Source: Escherichia phage EK99P-1
Sequence record: NC_024783.1
Strand: one strand, 5' to 3'
Length of the DNA stretch: 44,332 bases
The translations under genes were made by a program, and so were the position numbers. Positions within the stretch are counted from its first letter, which is position 1; the number at the start of each line of letters is the position of its first letter. Positions 5,066 through 42,776 of this stretch are shown one piece after another. The notes under the pieces were generated by a model. The model did no database searches, was not told the origin of the DNA, and saw only the letters and a list, made by a program, of their open reading frames with translations.

Positions 5066-5080
5066 TGGCCCCCTTTTATT
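5055..5080 (+). terminator. rho-independent terminator after Rz1
   Basis: GGGGGCC-gtaat-GGCCCCC hairpin followed by TTTTATT, between convergent genes. Confidence 0.6.
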
Positions 5081-5843
5081 AGCGCGGAATACCGCAGATT
5101 TCGTTTAACGTCTTCACGTCCAGTGCCACCGCCGTGGACTTCGGCTTGTCCGGGTATGGAATAAACTGTTCCACTTCAGGCCACGCCTTGATCAGCTTCT
5201 TATCGGTATTGTGCATATCCAGCACGCCGGTCACAGTCAGCTTGAATGCGTCATACTTCGCACGCAACTCGCGGCGGGCCTTGTCGTTACGGTCCAGGCG
5301 CTTGCAGAAATCATGGTCCGCCGGGTAGTCTATACGACCGCATGACTTATATATCGGCAGCGCTTTCCCATCCTCGTCCACTTCGCACACAGAAGCCAGC
5401 ATTACTTCTTCGTACCCTGGTACAATATCGCCGAGATCTGGAGATAGCGTATTCATGTATTTATATTCCCAGTATCCGCGATGTACTCGGTATTGTCGTC
5501 CGTCACCGCTCAATGACAGTGTGCGCACATTTCCGCCCGCGTTGATTTCGAAAGTGGCGTCGTAAACGCTGCCGATGCCTTTTGGGCGGTCAGCATTATA
5601 TCTATACGTCGCCTTGTTGGTGTATACGCTTACTCCGTACATCTGCGACGGGTCATCGCCGATTGCTTTAATGCGCGCGAGTAGCTCGGCGAAAGTGCGA
5701 ATGCCTTCCGGCATACAGTCCAGCGTAATGGCGTACGCCAGGTCGCGCGAGTCCATCATGATGGATTTGGCTTCGGTCGCGATTTCATGGTCGCGCAGGA
5801 TGTTAGCCAGAATCTGGTTTTTAATGTCTTTCGTCAGTCTCAT
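5079..5843 (-). CDS. hypothetical protein (minus-strand moron in head module)
   Basis: 254 aa from the ATG at 5843 (RBS AAAGAGGA). Opposite strand to all flanking structural genes. No family recognised by eye. Confidence 0.6.
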   Translation of the reverse strand: MRLTKDIKNQILANILRDHEIATEAKSIMMDSRDLAYAITLDCMPEGIRTFAELLARIKAIGDDPSQMYGVSVYTNKATYRYNADRPKGIGSVYDATFEINAGGNVRTLSLSGDGRQYRVHRGYWEYKYMNTLSPDLGDIVPGYEEVMLASVCEVDEDGKALPIYKSCGRIDYPADHDFCKRLDRNDKARRELRAKYDAFKLTVTGVLDMHNTDKKLIKAWPEVEQFIPYPDKPKSTAVALDVKTLNEICGIPR

Positions 5844-5857
5844 TTGTGTGTCCTCTT

Positions 5858-6019
5858 TTAGTGGTTGTATAATTCGCCGCGTGCGTCGGCATCTTCCATT
5901 TGGTGTAGTGCGTGTTTCTGGTCCTGGCAAGGAATCCAGCGTTCCTCTAATTTATGCCAGAAGTAAAACACCCCGTTATCCAGCTTAATCTCGGCAATAC
6001 CGTTATTGAAAGTTAGCAT
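5858..6019 (-). CDS. hypothetical small protein (first gene of moron)
   Basis: 53 aa from the internal ATG at 6019 with RBS GAGGG, immediately downstream of a promoter-like element. Confidence 0.45.
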   Translation of the reverse strand: MLTFNNGIAEIKLDNGVFYFWHKLEERWIPCQDQKHALHQMEDADARGELYNH

Positions 6020-6036
6020 TTTGTTACCCTCATTTG

Positions 6037-6078
6037 TTGGTATGCAACCAATATACTGCAACCAATCCACCAATGCAA
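6037..6078 (-). promoter_or_regulatory. sigma70-like promoter for the moron, with downstream palindrome
   Basis: Minus strand: -35 TTGCAT (6073-6078), 17-nt spacer, -10 TATATT (6050-6055), then TTGGT-tgcat-ACCAA (6037-6051). Contains two ATTGGTTGCA boxes. Confidence 0.45.
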
Positions 6079-6168
6079 GCAAATTTTGCGATTATTTTTA
6101 TCGCTGATAATATTAGAAGCGTGAAGTCGAGCGGGTGGCCTGCTCTGCCACAATCCCAGGGGGATAGC

Positions 6169-20888: not shown

Positions 20889-20910
20889 AGGGGCCATCTG
20901 GCCCCTTTCT
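20889..20910. terminator. hairpin terminator between convergent J and RBP genes
   Basis: AGGGGCC-atct-GGCCCCT followed by TTCT. Weak U tract on both strands. Confidence 0.45.
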
Positions 20911-21874
20911 AATACATGTTAGGGATGACTAGTAACGGTGTGGGTACGGTTACATTACGATTAGGCATCTGGAATTGCTGCCGTGAGTAGTTACCGATCA
21001 CGCGATTTCGTGCCGCGCTAACCACGTTGCCAGCCATGCGTATCCCGCTCATTCGCACGTGGTTATATCCGCTGTTGTTCTCAATGAGCGCGCCGGTATA
21101 TGAGAGCTGTACGAGGCTGTTGCCAATATTCTGACCACCAGTGCTGATATTAATTACGGAATTGAGGACAAACGGCTTATTCACAGTGGAGAACGTGACC
21201 TGGCCCTGGTTGTTAGTCATAGTAATGCCGGTCCCCGGTGATGGCGGCGTATTGTTGAATATCACCAGGTCCATATCCACCGAAGCCGCCACATCGTCAA
21301 TACCGCCATAGGACGCATTGCGGACAATAATACTGCCGCCGTCGAAGCCTACTGATACGTTGCCATCGTCCCATCGGGCGAACGGGACACCGCTAACGGG
21401 CAATGCCATACTACCGTTGACGCGCACGCGCTGTGCGTATCGGCAGGTCATTAGCTTAGACACGTTGGATATGGCGGTGAAGTCCGTCGAGTTCTCCACC
21501 AGTAAGCCCGCGTTGCGTGAACCAACCGGCAGCACTTCCATTATGACGCCAGCCCATTGTGGTAAGCCAGAGTACGCGCCATACGCATCCTCCCCGCGCA
21601 GGGTGATACCACTATTCCCGTTGCGGGTAACAGACGTAACGTAAAACGGGTCGGGAATTACCAGGGTCTGGTCGAATACCTCAATCACTTCTACCGGGCG
21701 AGTGAGCGCGACGACGACCTGCGACCCCTCCGTAAGCGGGGTGTTAATGGTTAGCGTCTTGTTGGACTGTGCCCGCTGGTTAAAGCTGGTGCAGTATGAC
21801 GGCGCGCGGAGTCCAGCGGTTATCTCCATTACAGGCCTGCCGTCGTTATAGTCGATAAGTATTCCAGCGCCCAT
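20909..21874 (-). CDS. putative receptor-binding protein, encoded antisense to tail genes
   Basis: 321 aa from the ATG at 21874 (RBS GGGAG). Gly/Asn/Ser/Thr-rich beta-type composition, immediately after J, coupled to an upstream lipoprotein gene. Confidence 0.5.
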   Translation of the reverse strand: MGAGILIDYNDGRPVMEITAGLRAPSYCTSFNQRAQSNKTLTINTPLTEGSQVVVALTRPVEVIEVFDQTLVIPDPFYVTSVTRNGNSGITLRGEDAYGAYSGLPQWAGVIMEVLPVGSRNAGLLVENSTDFTAISNVSKLMTCRYAQRVRVNGSMALPVSGVPFARWDDGNVSVGFDGGSIIVRNASYGGIDDVAASVDMDLVIFNNTPPSPGTGITMTNNQGQVTFSTVNKPFVLNSVINISTGGQNIGNSLVQLSYTGALIENNSGYNHVRMSGIRMAGNVVSAARNRVIGNYSRQQFQMPNRNVTVPTPLLVIPNMY

Positions 21875-21876
21875 TA

Positions 21877-22098
21877 TTACCACTCCCGTGATTTAACTGA
21901 TACTGTGCCTGAGAAGTTGCCGTCGCTATCGGATGACAGCCCGGTGAATCGCATGTCCACATCTCCTGCCGGGACTTTTTGCCCGTCAACGTAGCGCAAC
22001 ATGCAGCTACCGTAAGCAACCGTAACGCAATCGCCGTTGTTGCGTTCTACGGCGCAACCGGACAACAGAACCGCACAAATCATAATTAAAGTTTTCAT
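21877..22098 (-). CDS. small lipoprotein, putative superinfection exclusion protein (Cor/Llp-like)
   Basis: 73 aa. Signal peptide and lipobox MKTLIMICAVLLSGC, RBS GGAGATGA. Stop lies 3 nt before the RBP start. Confidence 0.55.
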   Translation of the reverse strand: MKTLIMICAVLLSGCAVERNNGDCVTVAYGSCMLRYVDGQKVPAGDVDMRFTGLSSDSDGNFSGTVSVKSREW

Positions 22099-22128: not shown

Positions 22129-22157
22129 AGTATTACACCGCTCAGCCAGGATTGCAA
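22129..22157 (-). promoter_or_regulatory. putative promoter for the lipoprotein-RBP operon
   Basis: Minus strand: ATTGGTTGCAA box with TTGCAA as -35, 17-nt spacer, weak -10 AATACT. Confidence 0.35.
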
Positions 22158-22178
22158 CCAATTTATGAGGATTCAGCT

Positions 22179-23840
22179 ATGGCAGCGGGTACACTATCCG
22201 TAACGAATAACAGCAAGGCGGTTGCCGGGGTAGGCACGACGTTCACCGCGTTTAAAGCTGGCGACTTCTTAACGCTGGTGGTGGGGCAAGTCCCTTACAC
22301 TGTCGCGATTGCATCCGTAGAAAGCGATACCGCGCTTACGCTGGTGCTTCCGTTCGACGGTCCCACGGCAACCGGCCTTGCCTGGGATGGCGTTGCGCGC
22401 GATACCATGTCACTGGCGACGATGGGCGTTACCGTACAGGCCCAGAAAGCGTTGCGATTGATGATCGCCGATGAAAACAACTGGCGTGCGATCTTCGGAG
22501 ACGAAGAAGAAGTTACGGTAACGCTGCCGAACGGGCAGGTTATGCAGGGTATGTCGTGGGGCTACCTGTCGCGATTACTGAAGGAAGTTGACCCCGTTGA
22601 AATGCGCGACCTGCAACAACAAGCCGCCGCATCGGAAGCCGCCGCACTAGCATCACGTAACGAGGCTGAAGGATTCAAGAACGAGACGGCAGGCATTCGC
22701 GACGCCACCGATCAGATTAAGACGGATACGCAGGCAATCCACGACGCCACCAACGCCATCAAGACGCAAACCAACCAGATTAAGACAGATACTGGCGCTA
22801 TTCGCGACGAGGCCAACCAGATTAAGACGGATACCGGGGTTATTCGCGACGAGGCCAATACCGCGAAGATTGACGCGCAAACCGCCAGCACTGCCGCGCA
22901 GGGATTTCGCGATCAGGCCGAAGAATGGGCGCGAAGCGTAAACGCCGATAATCTGCTAACTAAAACCGGCAACCTGGCAGGCATTGCAGACGCTGCGGCA
23001 GCGCGCACCAATTTAGGCTTAGGTACTGTCGCCACGTTAAACACTGTTCCTGTCGCTAATGGCGGTACAGGTGCGACCACGGCTGCAGCAGCGCGCACCA
23101 ATTTAGGCTTAGGTACGACTCAGGTTGTATCTTTCGGGTCAGTGGCGTTGACTAACGTTGTTACGGGCGCTTACGCTAGCGGTTTTGGGGCAACCGTAGC
23201 TGGCGGCAGTTTTGGGGAACAGTATACCAACCCCACAGCAATTGCTGTAGATAGCACCGCTGTCGAAGGTTACATTACGTTAATGAGGGTTACAATACCC
23301 GGTGTGGGTAACCCGGGTGGCATGGACTGCTTCATGTACGCTAATGGTACGTCGTTCTTCAGAATAAATACCGGTGTTGCAAATTACGTGTTTAACAGTA
23401 CTGGGGTAGCCACCGCTACACAGTGGTCGAGTACATCTGACGAGCGAATCGAAGAGGATATTGCACGGATTGATAACCCGCTCGAAAAAATGAAGCGTAT
23501 CAAAGGTGTGTCATGGCGACTGAAGACAAACGGTAGTATCGGTCACGGTTTCATCGCTCAGGATGTGGAGCAAGATTTCCCTAGCGCTGTCAATCCGTTA
23601 CAAGATATGCAATTGTCCGACGGTAGTGTCGTAAAAAACGTCAAGTCTGTTGACACGTACGGCGTGGCCGCAGCTTTGCATCATGAAGCTATTCTCGCAC
23701 TCATGGCTAAAATAGAAGCACTGGAGGCCACCATGCGAGCGTTGCCGGATACGATGAAACAGGTGGAGGAGTTGAAAGCCGCACAAGCGGGCTTTCGTAA
23801 TATTCCTTTCCGTCCACTTCCACTAAGGGCCAATCGTTAA
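22179..23840 (+). CDS. side tail fibre with C-terminal intramolecular chaperone (peptidase S74-like) domain
   Basis: 553 aa from the ATG at 22179 (RBS GAGGA). Repeated IKTDT and AARTNLGLGT motifs. C-terminal DERIEEDI...KRIKGV...HGFIAQDVEQ...AILALMAKIEALE resembles the endosialidase-type chaperone. Confidence 0.7.
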   Translation: MAAGTLSVTNNSKAVAGVGTTFTAFKAGDFLTLVVGQVPYTVAIASVESDTALTLVLPFDGPTATGLAWDGVARDTMSLATMGVTVQAQKALRLMIADENNWRAIFGDEEEVTVTLPNGQVMQGMSWGYLSRLLKEVDPVEMRDLQQQAAASEAAALASRNEAEGFKNETAGIRDATDQIKTDTQAIHDATNAIKTQTNQIKTDTGAIRDEANQIKTDTGVIRDEANTAKIDAQTASTAAQGFRDQAEEWARSVNADNLLTKTGNLAGIADAAAARTNLGLGTVATLNTVPVANGGTGATTAAAARTNLGLGTTQVVSFGSVALTNVVTGAYASGFGATVAGGSFGEQYTNPTAIAVDSTAVEGYITLMRVTIPGVGNPGGMDCFMYANGTSFFRINTGVANYVFNSTGVATATQWSSTSDERIEEDIARIDNPLEKMKRIKGVSWRLKTNGSIGHGFIAQDVEQDFPSAVNPLQDMQLSDGSVVKNVKSVDTYGVAAALHHEAILALMAKIEALEATMRALPDTMKQVEELKAAQAGFRNIPFRPLPLRANR

Positions 23841-24324
23841 CAATCACGTACGGCTCAGCAATATCCTCAATCACGCCGTGCGCGCTATGTTGTCCGAAAT
23901 CTACGCCCACCAGGATAACCCCGGCAACGCGACGAGTGAGATACTCGCGAGCGCAACGAGCCTCTACCAGTCCGCGACGGATGCCGCTGGTGGCCTTAAC
24001 CTCATAGGTCCAGACGGCATCAATCATGTGTTCCCGGAAGTCGGGGCCGGACTTAACCTTGCGCTTACCGACCATGATAATATCGCCGCGGTCGATAGTG
24101 TTAGCACTAAACAGGCCGGTACGCATTAGCAAACCTTGCGGTATGCAACTACGCCCGCCCGCCTGCCCCTCAAGGTACATGCCCGCAAACATCTCGCCCA
24201 GCACACCGACAAGACGGCTTTGCTTGCACGCGTCAGACTTTAGGCGCCACTGGTCAAACTCTATGCTTGCGATCATTGCCGCCAGGTGGAATTGTTTACC
24301 GGATATTTCATATTCGCCGTACAT
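23707..24324 (-). CDS. hypothetical protein
   Basis: 205 aa, RBS GAGGA. The 3' end overlaps the tail fibre 3' end by 134 bp (convergent). Confidence 0.5.
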   Translation of the reverse strand: MYGEYEISGKQFHLAAMIASIEFDQWRLKSDACKQSRLVGVLGEMFAGMYLEGQAGGRSCIPQGLLMRTGLFSANTIDRGDIIMVGKRKVKSGPDFREHMIDAVWTYEVKATSGIRRGLVEARCAREYLTRRVAGVILVGVDFGQHSAHGVIEDIAEPYVIVNDWPLVEVDGKEYYESPLVRLSTPPPVSSYPATLAWWPPVLLF

Positions 24325-24366: not shown

Positions 24367-24888
24367 TTATTTCAGTGCGCTACGTACCAGTGTTTTTTCC
24401 ATGTTACGGAAATCTTCCGGCGTCATGAGGATTTTGGACCCATCTTCGCCGGTGAGCACGACCATAGGCTGGACTTCTTGGTCTGCAATGCCGAAATTGG
24501 CGGCTTTTACAGTCTTACCCACCGATGCAGAAGGATTCCACGTCCCCGCGGTGGCGATGGGCCAACCTTTAAGGCTGTCGTATTGCGCTGCCGTTGTATC
24601 GACCTGAATCTCATCATGTACGGTCATGTAAGACTCGCCCAGCAGGGCGGCATACGCCACCAGATCCACGATGTTATCTTCCTGGTGCTTACGGTGCTGG
24701 CGCACCAGCTTCAGGCAGATCAGGAAGGTCCAGGCTTCTTGCTCGGTAAGGTCGCGACCGGTAAGCGCGTTAAACACGGCAGCGATTTGTTTAGCGCTGC
24801 GTTCTTCTTTCGCGTTGTCATAGCCGTTTTCTTTCCCGCGCTGTTCCATAGTGGTGGCGGCGTTTTTGCAGTATTCGTATGCTTTCAC
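24367..24888 (-). CDS. hypothetical protein, possible MazG-like all-alpha nucleotide pyrophosphohydrolase domain
   Basis: 173 aa, GTG start with RBS AAGGG. The pattern EQRGKENGYD...AWTFLICLKLVRQHRK...DNIVDLVAYAALLGE is suggestive only. Confidence 0.4.
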   Translation of the reverse strand: MKAYEYCKNAATTMEQRGKENGYDNAKEERSAKQIAAVFNALTGRDLTEQEAWTFLICLKLVRQHRKHQEDNIVDLVAYAALLGESYMTVHDEIQVDTTAAQYDSLKGWPIATAGTWNPSASVGKTVKAANFGIADQEVQPMVVLTGEDGSKILMTPEDFRNMEKTLVRSALK

Positions 24889-24935
24889 AGTATTGCCCTT
24901 TTTAGCGAGGGGGCGGTAATGCCCCCGACACGTTT

Positions 24936-24965
24936 ACTATAGTGCAACCAACCTATTGGTTGCAA
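24936..24965 (-). promoter_or_regulatory. putative promoter with palindromic box pair
   Basis: Minus strand: TTGCAA (-35), 18-nt spacer, TATAGT (-10). The perfect inverted repeat TGCAACCAA-cct-a-TTGGTTGCA spans the -35 and spacer. Confidence 0.45.
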
Positions 24966-25423
24966 GTGAATTTCGCAACATTTATCGCGTAAATTTTCGG
25001 GACCAAATCACCACACGCCCGACGAATTGCCGCGATGTTCTTCTCGCAATCTTCAATGATGACCAGTTCCGACACGTCCGCATAGCAGACCATTTTGAAC
25101 ACGGCGCACGCCTTAAACTCAGGCGGCGGGGTGTCGTCCAGCATGTGGCGCATAAACAACCGGCCTACCGGGAAGACCTCCAATTGCTCGGCGGTGGTGT
25201 CCCAGCATTCGCGCTGCCGGTTGGTCAGATACGCGATCTCGAAGCCTTGCTCTTTATACATGCGCAGTAGCGGCAGCATATCCATGTTCAGGTCTTCGCG
25301 GACGTGCGCCTTGTGCCACTTCGCCCAGAAGGTGGATTTAGTTTTTATGCCCGGCACCAGGTCGGCGCGCGCATCGCTTGACCCATTAATAACGCCATCC
25401 AGATCACAAATCAGTAATTTCAT
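24953..25423 (-). CDS. HAD-superfamily phosphatase / nucleotidase-like protein
   Basis: 156 aa. N-terminal LICDLDGV matches HAD motif I (DxDG). Confidence 0.6.
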   Translation of the reverse strand: MKLLICDLDGVINGSSDARADLVPGIKTKSTFWAKWHKAHVREDLNMDMLPLLRMYKEQGFEIAYLTNRQRECWDTTAEQLEVFPVGRLFMRHMLDDTPPPEFKACAVFKMVCYADVSELVIIEDCEKNIAAIRRACGDLVPKIYAINVAKFTCNQ

Positions 25424-25653
25424 TTCAATTCCTCAATAAGGGTGTATCGGGCGCTGCGCGCGGTGTAAGAGTTGCACACGAAATGACAACGTCGGGTAAT
25501 GACAAGCCACCCGGTAAGGTCCATACCCAGGAGGTGTTCAGGCCGTGACACGCGACGCACACGATCGCGGCGCGGGTCAATGTTATAGTCTTTTTGCATT
25601 TGGTCTACGACCGCGTGGTCGCGGTCAACGATTAAGATATTCATGTAGCTCAC
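25420..25653 (-). CDS. hypothetical protein
   Basis: 77 aa, overlapping junctions with both neighbours. Confidence 0.4.
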   Translation of the reverse strand: MSYMNILIVDRDHAVVDQMQKDYNIDPRRDRVRRVSRPEHLLGMDLTGWLVITRRCHFVCNSYTARSARYTLIEELK

Positions 25654-26110
25654 TCTCGCTCATTATTTCAATTTGTGCGCTGCCGCTGGGCGGCGCTTCG
25701 TCAAAGATTATCAACTGCTGGCACTTGTTATTGCTCGGCCCGACTTCACCGGTTACAGCGTGTATAAATCGGATACGCCAGTCCAGAAGAATTATCAGGT
25801 TTGCAGTCTTCCGGGCCAGCTTTGCCCACTTCGTCGACGTGTCCTGATTCAGCAGCATGACGGTCCGGCGTCCGTGCGCTGCGCACTTGACCCACGGCAG
25901 CGGATCGGAATACGGCGGGTTGCACCACTTCCACCCTTTCAACTCAGACCAGTCCGCATCGAGCGCGCTGTGCTCTGCCGTGAAGTAACGCGGTAGCAGG
26001 TGGTTGGTGTCGCTTGCCGCCATATCGTAACGGAATCGGTACTTACGGCGCAGCGGTTTAAATAAAGCTGGCGGCGTGCGCCAGCTATCTTTTTGCTCAC
26101 TCTTCTGCAT
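25625..26110 (-). CDS. DNA N6-adenine methyltransferase (small phage Dam type)
   Basis: 161 aa with WRTPPALF and catalytic NPPY motifs. Confidence 0.8.
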   Translation of the reverse strand: MQKSEQKDSWRTPPALFKPLRRKYRFRYDMAASDTNHLLPRYFTAEHSALDADWSELKGWKWCNPPYSDPLPWVKCAAHGRRTVMLLNQDTSTKWAKLARKTANLIILLDWRIRFIHAVTGEVGPSNNKCQQLIIFDEAPPSGSAQIEIMSESELHEYLNR

Positions 26111-26555
26111 GATCTGGATCTATCGCGTACAGGGCAATTTTCTTATTACTGTTTAGAACGCGTTGCACGCGCTTTGATTCCTCGGTGCCGAGTGGTCGGC
26201 AGTCGGAGTAGTAAGACCCGTTCCCTCGCCACGCAACCAGCACCAGGTCTTTCCGGTCAATCTTAGACTGGCGGCCCTTCGGACGCACGTACTCCTCGGC
26301 CCGTTTGCAATGTTCACGCAAACCATCGGCAGTGATGCGGTTTAGTGCAACGCTGGTGGTGTATCCGGTGCGCTGCATAATCCCCATCAATTCGAATAGC
26401 AGTTCGAAGCGCTCCTCTAGCTCCTGGCGCACTTTCTTCTCCCCTTCATATAGCGTCTGGTTGGTGTCCGCCAACGCGTTCGCACGTTCGGCCTGTTCGC
26501 GGGCTTCGAGGCATTGCGCGGCCCAGTAGTTTTTCTCTTCTTGTAAAATTTTCAT
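26097..26555 (-). CDS. hypothetical protein
   Basis: 152 aa, charged coiled-coil-like N-terminus. Confidence 0.45.
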   Translation of the reverse strand: MKILQEEKNYWAAQCLEAREQAERANALADTNQTLYEGEKKVRQELEERFELLFELMGIMQRTGYTTSVALNRITADGLREHCKRAEEYVRPKGRQSKIDRKDLVLVAWRGNGSYYSDCRPLGTEESKRVQRVLNSNKKIALYAIDPDHAEE

Positions 26556-26798
26556 TTATTTAAGCTCCGTTGTGCGAATCTCATCGCGAGGAATAAATTT
26601 GCCATCCATTTCAACCCAGCAGACACCGTATCGCCATTGTGTGTTACGGCCTGTTTGCTCGGGGTACACAGCCTCGCATTCGTAGCGTTCCGTGTAGTAA
26701 ACAGCTGCGGTAGGTACGCAAACACAAACGGCAATCATGAGGGTGAGGAGCACCCAAAATCTAAGGTCGCCGTCGTAGTCGAAAAATAATGATTTCAT
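26556..26798 (-). CDS. small membrane protein
   Basis: 80 aa from the ATG at 26798 (RBS GGAGACGG). One TM helix (FWVLLTLMIAVCVCVPTAAVYY). Confidence 0.45.
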   Translation of the reverse strand: MKSLFFDYDGDLRFWVLLTLMIAVCVCVPTAAVYYTERYECEAVYPEQTGRNTQWRYGVCWVEMDGKFIPRDEIRTTELK

Positions 26799-26844
26799 CT
26801 CACCGTCTCCAGGTATTAAAAAGGGCGTCCAACCGGACACCCTC

Positions 26845-26878
26845 AATATAATGCAACCAATATAATTACGCAACCAAT
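26845..26878 (-). promoter_or_regulatory. putative sigma70-like promoter with two boxes
   Basis: Minus strand: ATTGGTTGCGT (-35 TTGCGT), 17-nt spacer containing a second ATTGGTTGCA, -10 TATATT. Confidence 0.45.
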
Positions 26879-27202
26879 TTACGCATAAAAATTTGGGTCG
26901 CGCGCTACGTCTACCAGATACAGGTTACTAATGCGGTTGCCGTAGTGCCCAGGCGTGCGCTGGCGGCACACAACGGCGAATCCTGGGGGGATTGTATTGC
27001 CTGTCTCAATAATCCACGCCACGCGCGCGCCCGACAGCGTCTTGCCGTTGCACTCGATGCGCGTGCCGCCATCGGCAGTGTTAAGGTTGCCAATCTTGCA
27101 GCCTGTGGACTTCAGGCGAATGACGCCGGTCTTGCTGTCGTAGGAAAAAAGCTGATTGGTCATTGCCACTGAAAAGTCGATGGCTTCGAATGTAGTATTC
27201 AT
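26879..27202 (-). CDS. hypothetical protein (possible degenerate HNH/NUMOD-like fold)
   Basis: 107 aa. The C-terminal GHYGNRISNL is only weakly HNH-like. Confidence 0.35.
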   Translation of the reverse strand: MNTTFEAIDFSVAMTNQLFSYDSKTGVIRLKSTGCKIGNLNTADGGTRIECNGKTLSGARVAWIIETGNTIPPGFAVVCRQRTPGHYGNRISNLYLVDVARDPNFYA

Positions 27203-27909
27203 TTTAAATTTTCCTCGTTAACCGCTATCGCGAAGCCGCGCGGGGTGAGTGAGTGGATTAATTTTGTACGAGCGGATTTACCACCGAGGCGACTATACTG
27301 CTTCGAGTACCCTTTTTCAATGAAAACAGGTTTCTTCTCTGGCATACGGAAGCCGTTGCCGGTCCATAAGCAGGTCAGCTTCGGATATGAATCGCGGGCG
27401 TTGATGTATTCCGGGAAGAGCGGGTGTACGTCATCCTCCGGCAGATATCCCCCATACTCCCACGGGTTGAATGAGTGATCCGGCTTGCGCCACTGGGTGG
27501 AAAGCACACTGCGCGGATTCTCAATCATATATGGCACTTCGAAGAAGTCACCCAGGTAAGCGGCGATCTTCGCGGTGCGCACCGCCTTAAGCTGAAAGGC
27601 TGGGTCTTTAGCCCGCTTGCGCGGGAAAGCTGGCGCACCGCTCACTGCCAGATCCGTACACGGAGGGAATGCATAGATGATATCCGGCGTACCGAAATCG
27701 CCATTCATCGCGCGGTCTACAAAGTCCAGATCGATAAACTCATTGCGATACCGGATTCCGCGACCATAAATCCGGTAGTCAAGGTAAGACCCGTGATCGG
27801 CTTCGGAGTAGTTGAAGCAATAACACTTATGCCCCATCTCGGCAGCACGCTCAATCATCAAGCCGCTGCCGTCAAACAACGACCAGATTGTCATTTTAGC
27901 AATAGTCAT
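27199..27909 (-). CDS. C5-cytosine DNA methyltransferase-like protein (compact)
   Basis: 236 aa with LFDGSG (motif I-like), FPPC (motif IV-like catalytic Cys) and ENP (motif VI-like). Unusually short for a C5-MTase. Confidence 0.5.
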   Translation of the reverse strand: MTIAKMTIWSLFDGSGLMIERAAEMGHKCYCFNYSEADHGSYLDYRIYGRGIRYRNEFIDLDFVDRAMNGDFGTPDIIYAFPPCTDLAVSGAPAFPRKRAKDPAFQLKAVRTAKIAAYLGDFFEVPYMIENPRSVLSTQWRKPDHSFNPWEYGGYLPEDDVHPLFPEYINARDSYPKLTCLWTGNGFRMPEKKPVFIEKGYSKQYSRLGGKSARTKLIHSLTPRGFAIAVNEENLK

Positions 27910-29330
27910 TTGCGCGCCTTTTTAGCTTTCATGTATTCCATCAGGTCGTCCTGGATATCTCGCTTACTGTCGCGACGCTCGGCGACCAATTCATCCAGTG
28001 TCCCGCGCGCCTGGATAATGTAGACGAATACCGGTCGAGGGTGTCCGGCCTGCATCTGGCGAACCGGCCCGATACGTTCAACGATCTGCGAAAAGTGCTC
28101 AAAGTTCCAGGTATCGGAGAAGATTGCCAGGTGATGTCCGCCGTCCTGCAAGTTAAGGCCGTGGCCTGCCGATGCCGGGTGTGCAAACATGATGGGGATC
28201 TCGCCCCTGTTCCACGCTTCCATATCCTTATTGCCCTGCTTACCTTTACCCAACGCAACGCCGTGCGGAAATTTCTTCTTAAGACGTGCCAGGTCATGCT
28301 TATACTGATACGCAACGAGCAACGGCGCGCCGTTCAACTCCTCCACGATACTTTCCAGCGCGTCCAGTTTGGCGTCGTGAATCTTCACCCACTCGTCGGT
28401 CCGTTCGCCGTCTTCGTCCACCTTATACACAGCGCCGGAAGCAAGCTGAAGGCACTTAATTGTCTTCGATGCCGCGTTCGCCGCTTCCACTGTTCCGCTT
28501 TCCAGTTCGGCAAATAGCTCGCTTTCAAACTGGTCGTAAATCTTGCGGGCTTTCTTCGGCAGGTCCACAACAACCGGCGTATAGATTGGCTTGTCGCACC
28601 CGAAGTATTCAGCCGCGTCAACGGTGAGGGATACATCTGACAGACGTTGTTGTATCTCTTTCTCGGAGTTCTTTAGCGGAGCGTGCTGCATAGTGAAGCT
28701 GCCAGGCTTAACAGGCTTGCTAATGAACCAGCGGTCGGTAAATGCCTTATAGCTACTGCCGAGGCGTTCGCCTCCGTCGACAAACCACGTCTGACCCCAT
28801 AAGTCTTTAAGCCCGTTTGGCGCTGGTGTGCCGGTAAGGTTAATCCAGCGCTTGACGTGTTTATGTGCAATCGCCGCCAGTGCGCGGGCGCGCTTGCTCC
28901 CCTGCTTGCTACGATAGCCTTTCAGCTTAGTCGATTCATCGGCAACAACGACCGTAAAGGGCCACGCATCGCCGTAATAGTCGACCAGCCACTCAACCAC
29001 ATCGTAGTTAACACAAACCACGTTAGCGTCGCTCTCCAGCGCTGCAATACGGTCCTTCTCCGGCCCGGTGCCGTCTACGACCAGCAGGGATGAGAACCGC
29101 CATTTCTCCTGTTCCGGGGGCCAGGTGCCGGATGCAACGCGCAGCGGGGCCAGCACCAGTACGCGGTCCTCCTGGTTTGACAGGATGCCAGTCTGGAACA
29201 TTTTATTCAGCGCCCACATTGTCGCGCCGGTTTTACCGGATCCCATTGTCGCCCATATATTGCATCGCTTATGCTTGAGGATGAACGCGGTTATCAACTT
29301 CTGATATTCGCGGCGTCGGAATCTTGCCAT
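27906..29330 (-). CDS. SNF2/DEAD-like helicase
   Basis: Walker A MGSGKTGA and DExx-like VVADEST. Start taken at the ATG at 29330 (RBS AAGGCGGA); the ORF-track start at 29420 is a GTG. Confidence 0.7.
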   Translation of the reverse strand: MARFRRREYQKLITAFILKHKRCNIWATMGSGKTGATMWALNKMFQTGILSNQEDRVLVLAPLRVASGTWPPEQEKWRFSSLLVVDGTGPEKDRIAALESDANVVCVNYDVVEWLVDYYGDAWPFTVVVADESTKLKGYRSKQGSKRARALAAIAHKHVKRWINLTGTPAPNGLKDLWGQTWFVDGGERLGSSYKAFTDRWFISKPVKPGSFTMQHAPLKNSEKEIQQRLSDVSLTVDAAEYFGCDKPIYTPVVVDLPKKARKIYDQFESELFAELESGTVEAANAASKTIKCLQLASGAVYKVDEDGERTDEWVKIHDAKLDALESIVEELNGAPLLVAYQYKHDLARLKKKFPHGVALGKGKQGNKDMEAWNRGEIPIMFAHPASAGHGLNLQDGGHHLAIFSDTWNFEHFSQIVERIGPVRQMQAGHPRPVFVYIIQARGTLDELVAERRDSKRDIQDDLMEYMKAKKARK

Positions 29331-29334
29331 GTCT

Positions 29335-29568
29335 TTATTCCGCCTTTTTCCAGACTTCTGTCTCACTGTTCCAGTTCCTTTTTGTGGCGTCGTAGTTGGT
29401 GGCGTGTCCGATGTGGACACCGGTAGCCCGGAAGCTCTTAAATTTTTGCCAGCACACCGTCAACGGCAGCGGATCATTCATGCCTGCGATAAACCATACG
29501 CGATCGCCCGGTTTACATTCGCCCAGCTTGGTTAGTCGGTAATGTTCTTTCATCGTCATGTCTCCCAA
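29335..29568 (-). CDS. hypothetical protein
   Basis: 77 aa, ends 4 nt before the helicase start. Confidence 0.4.
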   Translation of the reverse strand: MGDMTMKEHYRLTKLGECKPGDRVWFIAGMNDPLPLTVCWQKFKSFRATGVHIGHATNYDATKRNWNSETEVWKKAE

Positions 29569-29596: not shown

Positions 29597-29770
29597 TTAT
29601 TTTTGTTCTGCACGGTAGCGGCGCTGCCGTTCACGCTCTTTCTTATTGCGGCATGATTTGCACTCGGCCCGATACCCGTCCGGGCTGCGCGCAGTCTTGC
29701 CAGTGTATTTGTGGAACTGGGATAGCGGTTTAACGCAGCCGCAATTACTACAACGTTTTTCTTCAATCAT
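29597..29770 (-). CDS. small zinc-ribbon protein (CxxC...CxxC)
   Basis: 57 aa from the ATG at 29770: MIEEKRCSNCGCVKPLSQFHKYTGKTARSPDGYRAECKSCRNKKERERQRRYRAEQK, four Cys and a basic tail. Confidence 0.45.
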   Translation of the reverse strand: MIEEKRCSNCGCVKPLSQFHKYTGKTARSPDGYRAECKSCRNKKERERQRRYRAEQK

Positions 29771-29801: not shown

Positions 29802-29835
29802 ACTATACCGCTATGCGACCAATTCAGCAACCAAT
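29802..29835 (-). promoter_or_regulatory. putative sigma70-like promoter with two boxes
   Basis: Minus strand: ATTGGTTGCTG (-35 TTGCTG), 17-nt spacer containing ATTGGTCGCA, -10 TATAGT. Confidence 0.4.
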
Positions 29836-30089
29836 AAATCGCAGTCGGATATGTTGTCGATAACGCGAACGTCAGCACCGCGGCGGGCCATTCGCTCATG
29901 TTCACGTACCTGGTGCGGCTTCGGTTTTCCTCCGGGGCGCTTCACTTCGACGAAAACTATCTTGCCGTTGATGATGATAATCAGATCGGGCGCACCCGAG
30001 CGCCCCTCCCATGCCACTTTGCGGCAGAATCCGCCGACGGCTTTCACCCGTCTCATCAAGTGACTTTGAATCTTGCCTTCTGGTGTCAT
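29811..30089 (-). CDS. VRR-NUC domain nuclease
   Basis: 92 aa from the ATG at 30089 (overlaps the polymerase stop, TAATG). PD-(D/E)XK-like D...EVK core in GAPDLIIIINGKIVFVEVKRPGGKPKPHQ. Confidence 0.65.
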   Translation of the reverse strand: MTPEGKIQSHLMRRVKAVGGFCRKVAWEGRSGAPDLIIIINGKIVFVEVKRPGGKPKPHQVREHERMARRGADVRVIDNISDCDLLVAELVA

Positions 30090-32380
30090 TATTTCCTGTA
30101 CCTGTACATAATGTCGCCTTCCGCTGCAAGCGGGAAGCCTTTCGCCCAAACCGGCAGGTCGCACATCAGCGCGCACAACTCCTCGGTTGTGTAGTCGTCG
30201 GTATCCGGCACTTCGGTTATCAGTTCATCGTGTACGGACAGTACGATCTCATATCCCGCAGCTTCAACGCCAGGCATGGACCATGCGAGGATATCGCGAC
30301 ACAGCGCCTGCACGATGTTTTCCGTGAGTTTGCCGCCGTAGGTGTACTGGAATCCCCACTGGCGCGTCGTCTGATTCTCACCCTGATATTTAATGCGGGT
30401 GCTGGTGCGCTTCTTGCCGGTGTCTTCGTCGATCTCGGTCGTGACAGACAGCGCGATGCCGGGGTAGCTCATGATGCGCCCCGACGGTAACTCAATTTTC
30501 AACCACCACCCCGCGGCGTTCGGACCGTCGCGCTCCTCGTCGAAGGTTGGGTCATGCTTCGCCTTCGTGCGGACTATCTTGAGCGCTTTCTTACCATCCG
30601 GGCGAACGTTCGCGCCAGCCCAGTACGCTTTGCCCGGATTGCGGATCGCGCAGAGCACCGCGTCTTCCAGTTCGGCCCAAAATGCTACCGTCTTCGGGTG
30701 CGACTCACGCCACATACGTTTGATCGCATCACACGTCAGCCATACGTTTTTCGGCAGTATATAAGTTGGGCGCTCGTCTTTCTTGCCAGGCTTCGGCGGG
30801 CGCTTAGCTTCGTTAATGCGGGCGTATTCATATCCACGTTTCGCTGCTGCCCAAATGTGATCGGGGAATGTGCCCTTCATGACGTCCGCCATCGCGTAAA
30901 GGTCGAGGCCCAGGTTTTTAGCGAACTGCAAGAACGCGGCAACGCCACCTCCATAGCCCAACCCCAATTCGCACGCCTTACCAATCTGGCGCAAGTCTTT
31001 GCGGTTGGCTTTAATGTATTCCGGGTCGAGGCCGAACATTTTACCGGCAGTCTCACAATAAATATCGCGACCGGCCCTAAATACCATTAGCGCGGTTTTC
31101 TCGCCAGCGATCCAGGCGAGGCCGCGCCCTTCCACGTTGGAGTAGTCCGCTACGACAAACTTCTTGCCCTTCGCCGGAATAATGCACCCGCGAACGGTCG
31201 AGGCCGTTAGCTTCGATATGTCATATGCCCAGTGCGCTGTCCCGCGTAACAGGGAGTTGATGCCGTTGGTGAGCATGTGCGACCGCACCCAAAAGGATAT
31301 ATCGCTCTCGCCTTCACGGCGTTTAATCTTCCCTTCGTGGTCGTCGCTATACTCGCCGCGTGCCAGGTTTTGAGGCTGGAATCCTTTACCGGCCCAGCGT
31401 AGCGTGCGCTTTGCGCCACCATACTGAAGACACCCACGGCGGCGACCATCGGCGGATAGGCCGTTAACGAGCGGATTGTACTTAGTCGATGCCGTTGATG
31501 ACGCACCGAGGCGCATTTCGATAAGCGCTTTGCCTTCGTCGGGGAAATCCGGGTCTTCAAGCAGGTCGTTAAGTGTGGATTTCTGCGCGTTGTGGATCGT
31601 GAACGCCGGGGCGATATCACGCAGGATTGGCAGGAAGTCATTGCCGGTCAGCTTACCGCCAAATCGCTCCCAGGCTTCTTCCTTCAATTCTTCCTTATGC
31701 GCCTGCACCGCTTTGATCGCGGCGTTCGCCAGGTCAACGTCCACATAGAAGCCGCGGTCGTTGATCAACTGGTCGATATGTAGGATTTCATCTTCCTTCG
31801 GAGTATTACCCCAGTCCGGTATGCGCCAGTAGACTTCACGCATTGCGATAATATCCAGCGCGGCATAGCGCAGAAATTTGGCCCATTCTTCCGGGTGAGT
31901 CTCGCGAGTGTAGCGGCGTATTTTGTAGGTCTTAGGGGTAGGCTTACAGAATCGTTTAATCAGCGCCTTGCCTGCCTTATCCTTCGCGTGCTCTGCGTCA
32001 ACGCCCAGCACCTGGCACTGCATATCGAGGCTACCCGGCAGCGCGTGGCGAAAGGCCATAATCATGGTGTCTTCGATCTGGCTTACCGGCAGGTCGATGC
32101 CCCACTTCTCACGGATAACCAGGCGGTCAAACAGGAGGCCGTTAGCCATCACTATTTTTGCTTTCTTGCGGGATACATGGCGGAGCGCCTTGCGCAGTTC
32201 ACGCGGCATTGTGGGGGATTCAGTGCAATCCCATGTCTGCACGCGGCCTTCGTCGATGGCGTAGGTGCAAATCATAATCTCGGTAGTTGGGTGTTCCGCG
32301 TAGGCGTATGCGCCCACTTTCTTCAGATCCACCCCGCTAAATGTCTCGGTATCGAGGAAAAGTCGTTCGAAGTCTTTCAT
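30089..32380 (-). CDS. family A DNA polymerase with 3'-5' exonuclease domain
   Basis: 763 aa. Exo I LFLDTETFS, motif A DYSNVEGR, motif B RQIGKACELGLGYGGG, motif C VHDE. Confidence 0.9.
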   Translation of the reverse strand: MKDFERLFLDTETFSGVDLKKVGAYAYAEHPTTEIMICTYAIDEGRVQTWDCTESPTMPRELRKALRHVSRKKAKIVMANGLLFDRLVIREKWGIDLPVSQIEDTMIMAFRHALPGSLDMQCQVLGVDAEHAKDKAGKALIKRFCKPTPKTYKIRRYTRETHPEEWAKFLRYAALDIIAMREVYWRIPDWGNTPKEDEILHIDQLINDRGFYVDVDLANAAIKAVQAHKEELKEEAWERFGGKLTGNDFLPILRDIAPAFTIHNAQKSTLNDLLEDPDFPDEGKALIEMRLGASSTASTKYNPLVNGLSADGRRRGCLQYGGAKRTLRWAGKGFQPQNLARGEYSDDHEGKIKRREGESDISFWVRSHMLTNGINSLLRGTAHWAYDISKLTASTVRGCIIPAKGKKFVVADYSNVEGRGLAWIAGEKTALMVFRAGRDIYCETAGKMFGLDPEYIKANRKDLRQIGKACELGLGYGGGVAAFLQFAKNLGLDLYAMADVMKGTFPDHIWAAAKRGYEYARINEAKRPPKPGKKDERPTYILPKNVWLTCDAIKRMWRESHPKTVAFWAELEDAVLCAIRNPGKAYWAGANVRPDGKKALKIVRTKAKHDPTFDEERDGPNAAGWWLKIELPSGRIMSYPGIALSVTTEIDEDTGKKRTSTRIKYQGENQTTRQWGFQYTYGGKLTENIVQALCRDILAWSMPGVEAAGYEIVLSVHDELITEVPDTDDYTTEELCALMCDLPVWAKGFPLAAEGDIMYRYRK

Positions 32381-36259: not shown

Positions 36260-36288
36260 ATATTAGATTGGTTGCAGAATGGAGTCAA
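36260..36288 (-). promoter_or_regulatory. leftward early promoter (PL-like)
   Basis: Minus strand: TTGACT (-35), 17-nt spacer containing TGCAACCAAT, TAATAT (-10). About 190 nt of leader before the ATG at 36061. Confidence 0.5.
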
Positions 36289-39334: not shown

Positions 39335-39493
39335 CATAAAATCCGGGATTGCAAAATACACGGCAGCATGTTGCGGATTGCGGTCGTCGCTGAACTAGGC
39401 AACCAATGCGAGATGCGGAATGGTGGGTGGAAAATGCAGTTTGCAGTCACAGCAGATAGCGATCAACTTTTTCATGCGCGTGATTAATATTGG

Positions 39494-39535
39494 TTGCATT
39501 CAATCCGGCACCCGGCTATATTGGTTGCACACCAA
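39494..39535 (+). promoter_or_regulatory. sigma70-like promoter with downstream palindrome
   Basis: ATTGGTTGCAT (-35 TTGCAT, 39494-39499), 17-nt spacer, TATATT (39517-39522), then TTGGT-tgcac-ACCAA (39521-39535) and RBS GAGGA. Confidence 0.5.
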
Positions 39536-42714: not shown

Positions 42715-42776
42715 TTGCTTTACTTGCAACCAACTATCAGACTATACTGCGACCAATCAACGAGAGGAGTAATACT

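Follow-up and report, generated by a model that had tools for sequence, protein, structure and literature searches.

Three genes resembling members of a compact minus-strand block of Escherichia phage EK99P-1 (NC_024783.1) have been studied experimentally in close relatives of this phage. In phage SM_S22, ORF35 encodes an inhibitor of the Tmn defence; phage SM_A8, which is sensitive to Tmn, lacks it (Yamashita et al., PMC11846954). Ksap1 of phage SECphi18, a protein of 74 residues encoded between methyltransferase and phosphatase genes, binds and activates Avs2 of Klebsiella pneumoniae and is confined to Dhillonvirus; a published escape variant of Ksap1 changes K30, L39 and F60 (Bechon et al., PMC11564622). 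In phage K42, a close relative of KarlJaspers (Bas06), a 711-bp dcm gene was mutated in all escapers of retron Ec86. Expression of K42 Dcm led to 5-methylcytosine (5mC) on multicopy single-stranded DNA (msDNA), as detected by mass spectrometry after liquid chromatography (LC-MS), at a CCWGG site, with a CCTGG-to-AATGG change of the msDNA used as site test (bioRxiv 10.1101/2023.08.16.553469). The activation of retron Eco1 by a phage cytosine methyltransferase is restated in PMC12916289. Here, the block at positions 24367-27909 of the 44.3-kb stretch that was analysed (44,332 nucleotides; hereafter the window) is compared with these systems gene by gene.

Organization of the block

As suggested by our comparison, the block is real and largely already known, and does not constitute a new DNA-modification pathway. 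The region is probably not one system. We consider it a plastic mosaic island in the distal early/replication block, which collects independent host-interaction genes between the SNF2 gene and a terminal DUF6378 gene. Its description as a plastic island between two anchors is preferred because of the contexts in which DUF6378 and SNF2 genes occur in other phages. The content of the island would be anti-Tmn as a single anti-defence gene, Ksap1 and Dcm as two triggers of immunity (of Avs2 and of retron Eco1, respectively) and a standard Dam, accompanied by genes of less clear function. The genes, all on the minus strand, are as follows.

26097..26555, minus strand: anti-Tmn homologue, 152 residues (homology to SM_S22 ORF35/CDS0035)
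25420..25644, minus strand: Ksap1, 74 residues (homology to SECphi18; start ATG at 25644, not 25653)
27199..27909, minus strand: Dcm-like C5-cytosine DNA methyltransferase, 236 residues, 711 bp (invariant motifs, fold, KarlJaspers homology)
25625..26110, minus strand: Dam-type N6-adenine DNA methyltransferase, 161 residues (PF05869, E 2.6e-36)
24367..24888, minus strand: DUF6378 protein (PF19905, 9.5e-10, residues 16-85)
26556..26798, minus strand: single-pass membrane protein, accessory moron, 80 residues (phrog_18961)
24953..25423, minus strand: capless HAD-superfamily phosphatase, 156 residues (phrog_415, 1.9e-36)
26879..27202, minus strand: degenerate HNH_3-like protein, 107 residues (phrog_99, 2e-16)
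27906..29420, minus strand: SNF2-family helicase gene (Pfam SNF2-rel_dom, 8.9e-11; phrog_62, 4.5e-157)

All eight minus-strand open reading frames (ORFs) that an earlier sequence-only reading of the window had listed for the block were found where it had placed them. The region 24300-28000 matches 156 phage records, of which 144 extend over 80% or more of its length with a nucleotide identity of 80-95%; the closest is Escherichia phage SSL-2009a (92.6% identity). Because nearly all of these matches are Dhillonvirus phages of E. coli, the window is essentially a complete or near-complete Dhillonvirus genome. The block is carried by about 150 deposited genomes, and the identical gene order is annotated in phages Oekolampad (Bas18) and SSL-2009a. 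It represents the distal end of a long minus-strand early/replication block (~23.7-36 kb), where it is situated downstream of the genes for the DNA polymerase and the SNF2 helicase. The SNF2 gene, whose stop overlaps the Dcm start (ATGA), is the conserved upstream border of the island, its product being 92-99% identical in seven Dhillonvirus genomes, and the DUF6378 gene is the conserved downstream border. In a PADLOC scan for defence-like proteins, orphan-methyltransferase models matching Dam were the sole matches.

Probable anti-defence and immune-trigger genes

The product of 26097-26555 is 79% identical to CDS0035 of SM_S22 over its full length (152-154 residues, E 2e-89) and occupies the matching slot. 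The ORF numbering of Yamashita et al. equals the GenBank numbering for SM_S22, in which nmad5 is CDS6, and the SM_A8 genome carries a deletion at the anti-Tmn slot, in agreement with the published absence of the gene (PMC11846954). By analogy with the 79%-identical homologue for which this activity was shown, the 152-residue protein would inhibit the Tmn defence ATPase. Both proteins belong to phages of the same genus and are encoded between the HNH-like and Dam genes, whereas 21% of their residues differ. The homologue is represented in 153 records, mostly at 60-90% identity. In RefSeq and PHROGs (phrog_10530; records SSL-2009a, EP23, SM_S22 and HH3) it is named 'DNA ligase', a name that we reject, as the protein has no match in Pfam, NCBIfam or PDB; the PHROG name was probably propagated from one RefSeq record.

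Ksap1 of the window is 83% identical to the syntenic ORF of SECphi18, which has K30, L39 and F60 at the published positions. The two proteins share the length of 74 residues and the position between methyltransferase and phosphatase genes, whereas the window allele has R30, L39 and Y60, i.e., conservative changes in place of K30 and F60. The recognition of this allele by Avs2 of K. pneumoniae (KpAvs2) is uncertain. Ksap1 was found in Dhillonvirus only (156 records) and, at 47-97% identity, is the most divergent gene in the block; it is truncated in GeorgBuechner. By analogy with SECphi18, the protein may be a liability to the phage, since it would be sensed by Avs2.

The real start of the membrane-protein moron is the ATG at 26798 and not the TTG at 26873: phrog_18961 matches residues 26-105 of the long ORF, and relatives annotate a 243-bp gene. 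It is present in 77 phage records (of about 156) and absent from SECphi18, slur05, Ioannina and EP23. The sequence-only reading had regarded the cluster as a likely hiding place for anti-defence genes and had counted three unknowns in it. The former view is borne out by the anti-Tmn homologue, 79% identical to a validated protein, and by Ksap1 as an Avs2 trigger. The count of unknowns shrinks, two of them being homologues of published immune determinants (anti-Tmn and Ksap1) and the third the 80-residue moron.

DNA methyltransferases

The Dcm-like protein has no match in Pfam (E <= 0.1) or NCBIfam and none to a PDB sequence. Among the matches listed, a precomputed PF00145 match accompanies 3 of 120 homologues; for the PF00145 model, members of this family are too short and have diverged too far. 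The family comprises more than 2800 protein clusters, and 1509 phage records contain it, from Dhillonvirus, Drexlerviridae, rV5-like phages and others. Within motif I (F12-D-G14-S15-G16), involved in S-adenosylmethionine binding, F12, G14, S15 and G16 are invariant in 46 homologues; P83-C84, with the motif IV nucleophile, and E130-N131-P132, with the ENV-type glutamate of motif VI, are likewise invariant among the homologues. The predicted structure, a confident model, has a class I methyltransferase fold that most resembles solved C5 DNA methyltransferases, with matches to DNMT3B and M.HhaI. After an invariant SLTPRG (residues 220-225), the C-terminus has a single helix, which could be taken for motif IX (LTPRE) as well as for motif X of the DNMT3 type. 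As a separate observation on the model, its second-best structural match is CmoX (PDB 8yf3), a phage DNA cytosine C5-carboxymethyltransferase that uses carboxy-S-adenosylmethionine (Cx-SAM), a cofactor made by E. coli.

End to end, the protein is 53% identical to Dcm of KarlJaspers, and both genes measure 711 bp. The residues C82, E128 and K175 published for K42 Dcm align with C84, E130 and K177 of the window protein. The length of 236 residues, the catalytic cysteine, the glutamate of ENP, one of two lysines and the DNMT3-like fold are common to both, whereas the genes of K42 and KarlJaspers reside in Drexlerviridae in another genomic context and K176 of K42 corresponds to Leu178 here. The compact C5-methyltransferase proposed for 27199-27909 by the sequence-only reading is thus confirmed by the invariant FxGSG, PPC and ENP motifs, by the fold and by the similarity to KarlJaspers Dcm. 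CCWGG specificity is proposed for the enzyme because its presumed target-recognition segment is at least as conserved as the remainder of the protein. By analogy with K42, the enzyme most likely writes 5mC at CCWGG.

The Dam-type enzyme scores 125.3 bits against PF05869 (gathering cut-off 28.1) and carries NPPY at residues 64-67; its earlier designation as an N6-adenine methyltransferase is well founded on these features and on its relationship to the Dam enzymes of T1 and Stx phages. It reaches 87.7 bits against the NCBIfam equivalog TIGR01712, below the cut-off of 97.05, and is 31.6% identical to T1 Dam and 36% identical to Dam of an Stx phage. Like these PF05869 enzymes, it is an orphan methyltransferase without a cognate nuclease, scores over the Pfam threshold and has NPPY; it differs from them in its shorter length (161 residues), in an identity of 32-36% only and in falling under the equivalog cut-off. 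As expected from its family, the enzyme most likely writes N6-methyladenine at GATC.

Of the two options raised by the sequence-only reading, plain methylation is the one we favour, with a C5 enzyme that is a full-length homologue of KarlJaspers Dcm, in which the K42 catalytic positions are kept, and with a standard PF05869 Dam. Together, Dam and Dcm would put the host's own harmless methylation pattern on the fast-replicating phage DNA, whatever the methylation status of the host. Such a pattern would protect solely against nucleases aimed at those sites, and the price of Dcm activity may be that it trips retron Eco1/Ec86. In the whole genome there is no avoidance of GATC (164 copies observed vs 170 expected from composition) or of CCWGG (154 copies), in keeping with sites that are either harmless or covered by methylation.

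The DUF6378 protein and variation of the island

The sequence-only reading had proposed a MazG-like pyrophosphohydrolase for 24367-24888. This assignment has to be abandoned, as Pfam gives DUF6378 only and there is no sequence, profile or fold link to MazG. Alignment of an 86-sequence DUF6378 profile with E. coli MazG by hhalign gave a probability of 0.5%; searches against PDB returned no sequence or profile match, and the predicted model has no fold match to a solved MazG-like structure and no enzyme-like fold match. The protein has an N-terminal domain of four helices, which a variable linker joins to a small beta-hairpin/helix unit at the C-terminus; AlphaFold2 predicted local distance difference test (pLDDT) values are above 90 for residues 1-90. 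The family is large (5117 clusters at 50% identity), its members being mostly stand-alone proteins of 90-160 residues, and 10 long family members inspected for domain fusions have no second Pfam domain. Two other names given to this family call for correction: the Ioannina orthologue (CDS 25809-26279) is named 'DNA N-6-adenine-methyltransferase', and the DUF6378-like families phrog_474 and phrog_1167 are named 'phosphofructokinase'. The linker (~95-140), for which AlphaFold2 predicts disorder, is an insertion/deletion hotspot across Dhillonviruses, whose proteins range from 130 to 199 residues; a recurring cassette of ~30 residues (LSVRLDGEINAYNSAMRV...) is present or absent among them.

Eleven DUF6378 neighbourhoods were sampled, and these told more about the gene than its sequence did. 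Dam is adjacent in two of them, Nmad5 is close in one, and the gene stands at the end of a PolA-SNF2 operon in four. In these four contigs, which derive from other PolA-SNF2 siphophages, the replication operon ends, or nearly ends, with DUF6378, which adjoins convergent tail-fibre genes. Between SNF2 and DUF6378 they have one to six genes, compared with seven in the window; the interval accommodates zero to six small genes unrelated to each other, with or without Dam. In the two contexts with Dam, DUF6378 directly follows the PF05869 gene, and an unrelated phage contig of 72 kb has it two genes behind Nmad5-YAcAr. These contexts are suggestive of a replication-module gene rather than part of a defined pathway.

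Conservation across the genus differs from gene to gene. Ksap1 and the anti-Tmn homologue are mostly 60-90% identical, compared with 90-99% for most Dcm, HNH-like, Dam and HAD proteins, and the Dcm gene is absent from EP23. Judged from the sequences, the contrast of Ksap1 and anti-Tmn with Dcm, HNH-like and HAD (mostly 95-99% identical) may be the signature of an arms race, and the pattern of variation fits independent, conflict-driven genes rather than a pathway. The cluster had been described as accessory; this holds for the moron, which is commonly missing, and only occasionally for Dcm and the anti-Tmn homologue, most other genes being near-universal in the genus.

Several points weigh against reading the block as an island of host-interaction genes. 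Highly similar anti-Tmn homologues often failed against a given Tmn, activity being allele-specific (PMC11846954), and in Ksap1 two of the three positions changed in the escape variant are not conserved (R30 and Y60 vs K30 and F60). The target sites of both methyltransferases are transferred from homologues at 53% and about 32-36% identity. The BASEL paper saw no simple link between phage methyltransferase genes and restriction resistance in the related Drexlerviridae. Four of nine genes (HAD, the HNH-like protein, the membrane moron and DUF6378) are without an assigned role, and the three transcription units described below are inferred from sequence alone. The BASEL paper also rates Dhillonviruses as restriction-sensitive relative to the 7-deazaguanine-modified Queuovirinae; because of these two BASEL results, the protective value of the methyltransferases is narrow or unproven.

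The value of the island reading lies mainly in annotation, as the block becomes readable gene by gene against recent literature. The anti-Tmn homologue should lose the name 'DNA ligase', and the DUF6378 protein the names 'MazG-like' and 'adenine methyltransferase'. In phage therapy, or when such phages are used as probes of defence systems, the defences that the phage may escape or set off can be predicted from the allele set.

Alternative readings of the block

The two methyltransferases could serve transactions of the phage's own DNA, such as the marking of replicated DNA, the evasion of mismatch repair or of Dam-dependent host processes, or the timing of packaging or expression, rather than anti-restriction. 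Both genes reside in the replication operon near SNF2 and are near-universal and highly conserved in the genus. Since Dam and Dcm are present in E. coli K-12 hosts anyway, nothing is gained from the marks against most restriction systems. BASEL saw no correlation between methyltransferase genes and restriction phenotype. However, EP23 is viable without the Dcm gene, Dcm-loss mutants of K42 were isolated as plaque-forming escapers, and related PolA-SNF2 phages do without both methyltransferase genes. Because of these three cases, the methyltransferases are dispensable for replication and packaging, and we regard this explanation as unlikely.

The other option of the sequence-only reading, a nucleotide or DNA-modification pathway, can be extended to the distant nmad5 gene. 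This gene (5079-5930, minus strand; PF18757, E 1.7e-57) is embedded in the plus-strand head module and has a promoter-like element of the ATTGGTTGCA type at ~6030-6090. In related Dhillonviruses a single Lys-to-Glu change in nmad5 leads to escape from Tmn (PMC11846954). The block and nmad5 could accordingly be imagined as a co-regulated DNA-modification regulon, with HAD and DUF6378 acting on nucleotides or DNA toward an uncharacterised base modification beyond methylation. Besides the presence of Nmad5 in the same genome, the promoter type that nmad5 shares with both sub-operons of the block speaks for such a regulon, as do the Tmn escape mutation, from which the authors suggest that Tmn senses an Nmad5-dependent modification (PMC11846954), and the neighbourhoods in which DUF6378 is found near Nmad5-YAcAr or directly after Dam. 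Nevertheless, the ATTGGTTGCA element belongs to promoters of this genome in general, with about ten occurrences spread over both strands, and its sharing is not specific. Deletion of nmad5 did not abolish Tmn sensitivity, and no modified base was reported (PMC11846954). Annotation of the block with Pfam, PHROG and NCBIfam revealed no biosynthetic enzymes and none of kinase, transferase, synthase or glycosylase type. DUF6378 adds no enzyme-like fold and, in its 10 long members, no partner domain, and most of its sampled contexts have neither Dam nor Nmad5 as neighbour.

The composition of the genome also speaks against a global modification. Among 52 palindromic hexamers, 15 occur at no more than 0.25 of expectation, compared with 9 of 1927 non-palindromic hexamer pairs, and 12 palindromic hexamers, including AAGCTT, CCATGG, GGTACC, GAGCTC, TCTAGA and GCCGGC, have zero copies. 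This palindrome deficit is classic restriction-site avoidance, which agrees with the reported restriction sensitivity of Dhillonviruses; the genome has no EcoKI sites either. As a side observation, CAGCAG and CTGCTG are strand-biased (22 vs 4). With the MazG assignment withdrawn, no biosynthetic enzymes at hand, genes that vary independently, restriction sensitivity and palindrome avoidance, the pathway option finds no support, and a regulon including nmad5 is highly unlikely. It is equally improbable that DUF6378 is a new DNA-modification or replication-associated factor which, with HAD and Nmad5, contributes to an uncharacterised Dhillonvirus DNA mark sensed by Tmn, the anti-Tmn gene of the island being the matching countermeasure.

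Hardly any chance is left to a CmoX-type activity of the Dcm-like enzyme, by which host carboxy-SAM would yield 5-carboxymethylcytosine instead of 5mC: Cx-SAM is natively made in E. coli, and the invariant R224 opens the C-terminal helix where, to judge from its position, the key arginine of CmoX would sit, but DNMT3-type methyltransferases likewise have an arginine at the equivalent of R224, FPPC stands here in place of the CmoX signature SPPC, Pfam and PHROG annotation reveals no cmoA or cmoY partner genes within the block, and LC-MS showed 5mC upon expression of the homologous K42 Dcm.

HAD phosphatase and HNH-like protein

Among the genes of the island without an assigned role, the HAD phosphatase was recognized by D8-L-D10-G (DLDG, residue 7), T67 in LTNR (residue 66) and E124-D125 (EDCE, residue 124). 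Its scores against curated families are below threshold (Acid_phosphat_B 23.8 bits, cut-off 27; HAD-IIIA 15.2, cut-off 44.6), and a weak match to the e(P4) 5'-nucleotidase was also seen. The phosphatase call of the sequence-only reading therefore holds at the level of motifs and of phrog_415, with sub-threshold Pfam and NCBIfam scores. The protein resembles phosphatases of HAD subfamily III (the T4 Pnk phosphatase domain, class B/C acid phosphatases and e(P4)) in its DxDG nucleophile motif and its Thr and ED motifs. Its small size implies that, as in that subfamily, there is no large cap domain, and its PHROG family is named for polynucleotide kinase/phosphatase. Unlike T4 Pnk, it has no kinase domain, and all its curated-family scores are under threshold. 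We infer a nucleotide or a nucleic-acid end as its substrate. The protein is 95-100% identical in 136 records and truncated in GeorgBuechner.

The HNH-like protein scores 13.1 bits against Pfam HNH_3 (cut-off 24.8). The catalytic DH, invariant in four canonical HNH_3 proteins taken as references from other loci (a candidate reference from SM_A8 had no Pfam match), aligns with R-Q (or C-R). The upstream AHR is changed to GAR with loss of the histidine. The protein retains the central N93 and has no DNA-binding domain of the AP2-like type at its C-terminus. The earlier description as a degenerate HNH-like protein is accurate, the scaffold being retained and the catalytic Asp-His pair lost. In common with HNH_3 homing endonucleases (PF13392), the protein has an N-terminal beta-rich region, an 'IPPG' segment and the central Asn-Leu of the HNH core; in contrast to them, it lacks the catalytic Asp-His and the AP2-type tail and is encoded by a strictly conserved core gene, not a sporadic mobile one. 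A homing endonuclease was consequently rejected, as the catalytic dyad is gone and the gene is universal and 95-99% conserved, opposite to the behaviour of homing endonucleases. It was found in 160 records, mostly 95-99% identical, and may be translationally coupled to Dcm.

Promoters and proposed transcription units

The following regulatory elements were located within the block.

26845..26873, minus strand: internal promoter P1, TTGCGT-17-TATATT, with two copies of TTGGTTGC(G/A); aligns with two other copies in the genome
24936..24965, minus strand: internal promoter P2, TTGCAA-18-TATAGT, with an inverted pair of TTGGTTGCA; conserved in the genus
27292..27320, minus strand: possible third promoter, TTGAAA-17-TATAGT, within the 3' portion of the Dcm gene; agrees with the consensus at 10 of 12 positions
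26816..26844, minus strand: terminator-like hairpin with U-tract, immediately behind the -10 of P1; RNA folding energy of -17.7 kcal/mol (z -4.4)

P1, P2 and the site upstream of nmad5 share an element of ~45 nt, which consists of a -35 TTGC(A/G)N, a spacer of 17-18 nt, a -10 TATA(G/T)T and copies of ATTGGTTGCA. P1 and P2 are conserved in eight other Dhillonvirus genomes, those with P1 including Oekolampad, SSL-2009a, EP23, Pubbukkers, SM_S22, SM_A8 and Ioannina. The site at 27292-27320 has no ATTGGTTGCA element and matches by consensus only, and a scan of the region for the sigma-70 consensus gave 10 hits compared with 5.1 +/- 2.7 in shuffles, which is not clearly above chance. At least three internal promoters had been proposed to feed the cluster; two of them (P1 and P2) are well supported by the conserved element, and the third is a bare consensus match.

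Genome-wide, the 9-mer TTGGTTGCA (at most one mismatch) has 25 matches vs 10.2 +/- 3.3 expected. It is often paired and overlaps the -35 of sigma-70-like promoters that lie shortly upstream of where genes begin, on either strand, as at 6043-6065, 22153-22161, 24943-24964, 26852-26877, 29814-29834, 36268-36276, 39490-39529 and 42725-42756. The 9-mer might represent a promoter signature specific to the genus, or it might serve a phage regulator as operator.

The hairpin is conserved in the genus, with a compensatory C-G to U-A change in Ioannina. Transcripts from upstream would extend over the SNF2, Dcm and HNH-like genes, with the hairpin as their probable end. A second, translationally coupled unit would start from P1 within the hairpin and run from the moron through the anti-Tmn homologue, Dam and Ksap1 to HAD. 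P1 transcripts, without the 5' arm of the hairpin, would continue, and read-through from the upstream unit would be terminated. P2 would drive DUF6378 as a third unit. Translational coupling within the units is proposed because the genes inside the block overlap by 4-20 nt.

Genes outside the island

Just outside the island lies the final ORF of the minus-strand block.

23707..24324, minus strand: final ORF of the minus-strand block, phrog_10558; 205 residues here, 191 residues in relatives

Residues 1-182 of its product are 78-96% identical in relatives, and the remainder has no match to them. The end of this ORF was probably reshaped by exchange of the variable tail-fibre module. It overlaps the 3' end of the convergent tail-fibre gene 22152-23840 (plus strand) by ~130 nt. 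On the other side of the island, just upstream of SNF2, 29597-29770 and 29811-30176 (both minus strand) encode a 57-residue zinc-ribbon protein and a VRR-NUC nuclease. The zinc-ribbon protein matches a PHROG family named 'Lar-like restriction alleviation protein' (6.5e-17), the Lar-like name being annotation only. Furthermore, a 324-residue DUF6453 protein (E 8e-122) is encoded at 20909-21883 (minus strand) between the tail-tip gene and the lateral tail-fibre gene, and members of the DUF6453 family also adjoin tail genes in an unrelated DUF6378-containing contig (L026).

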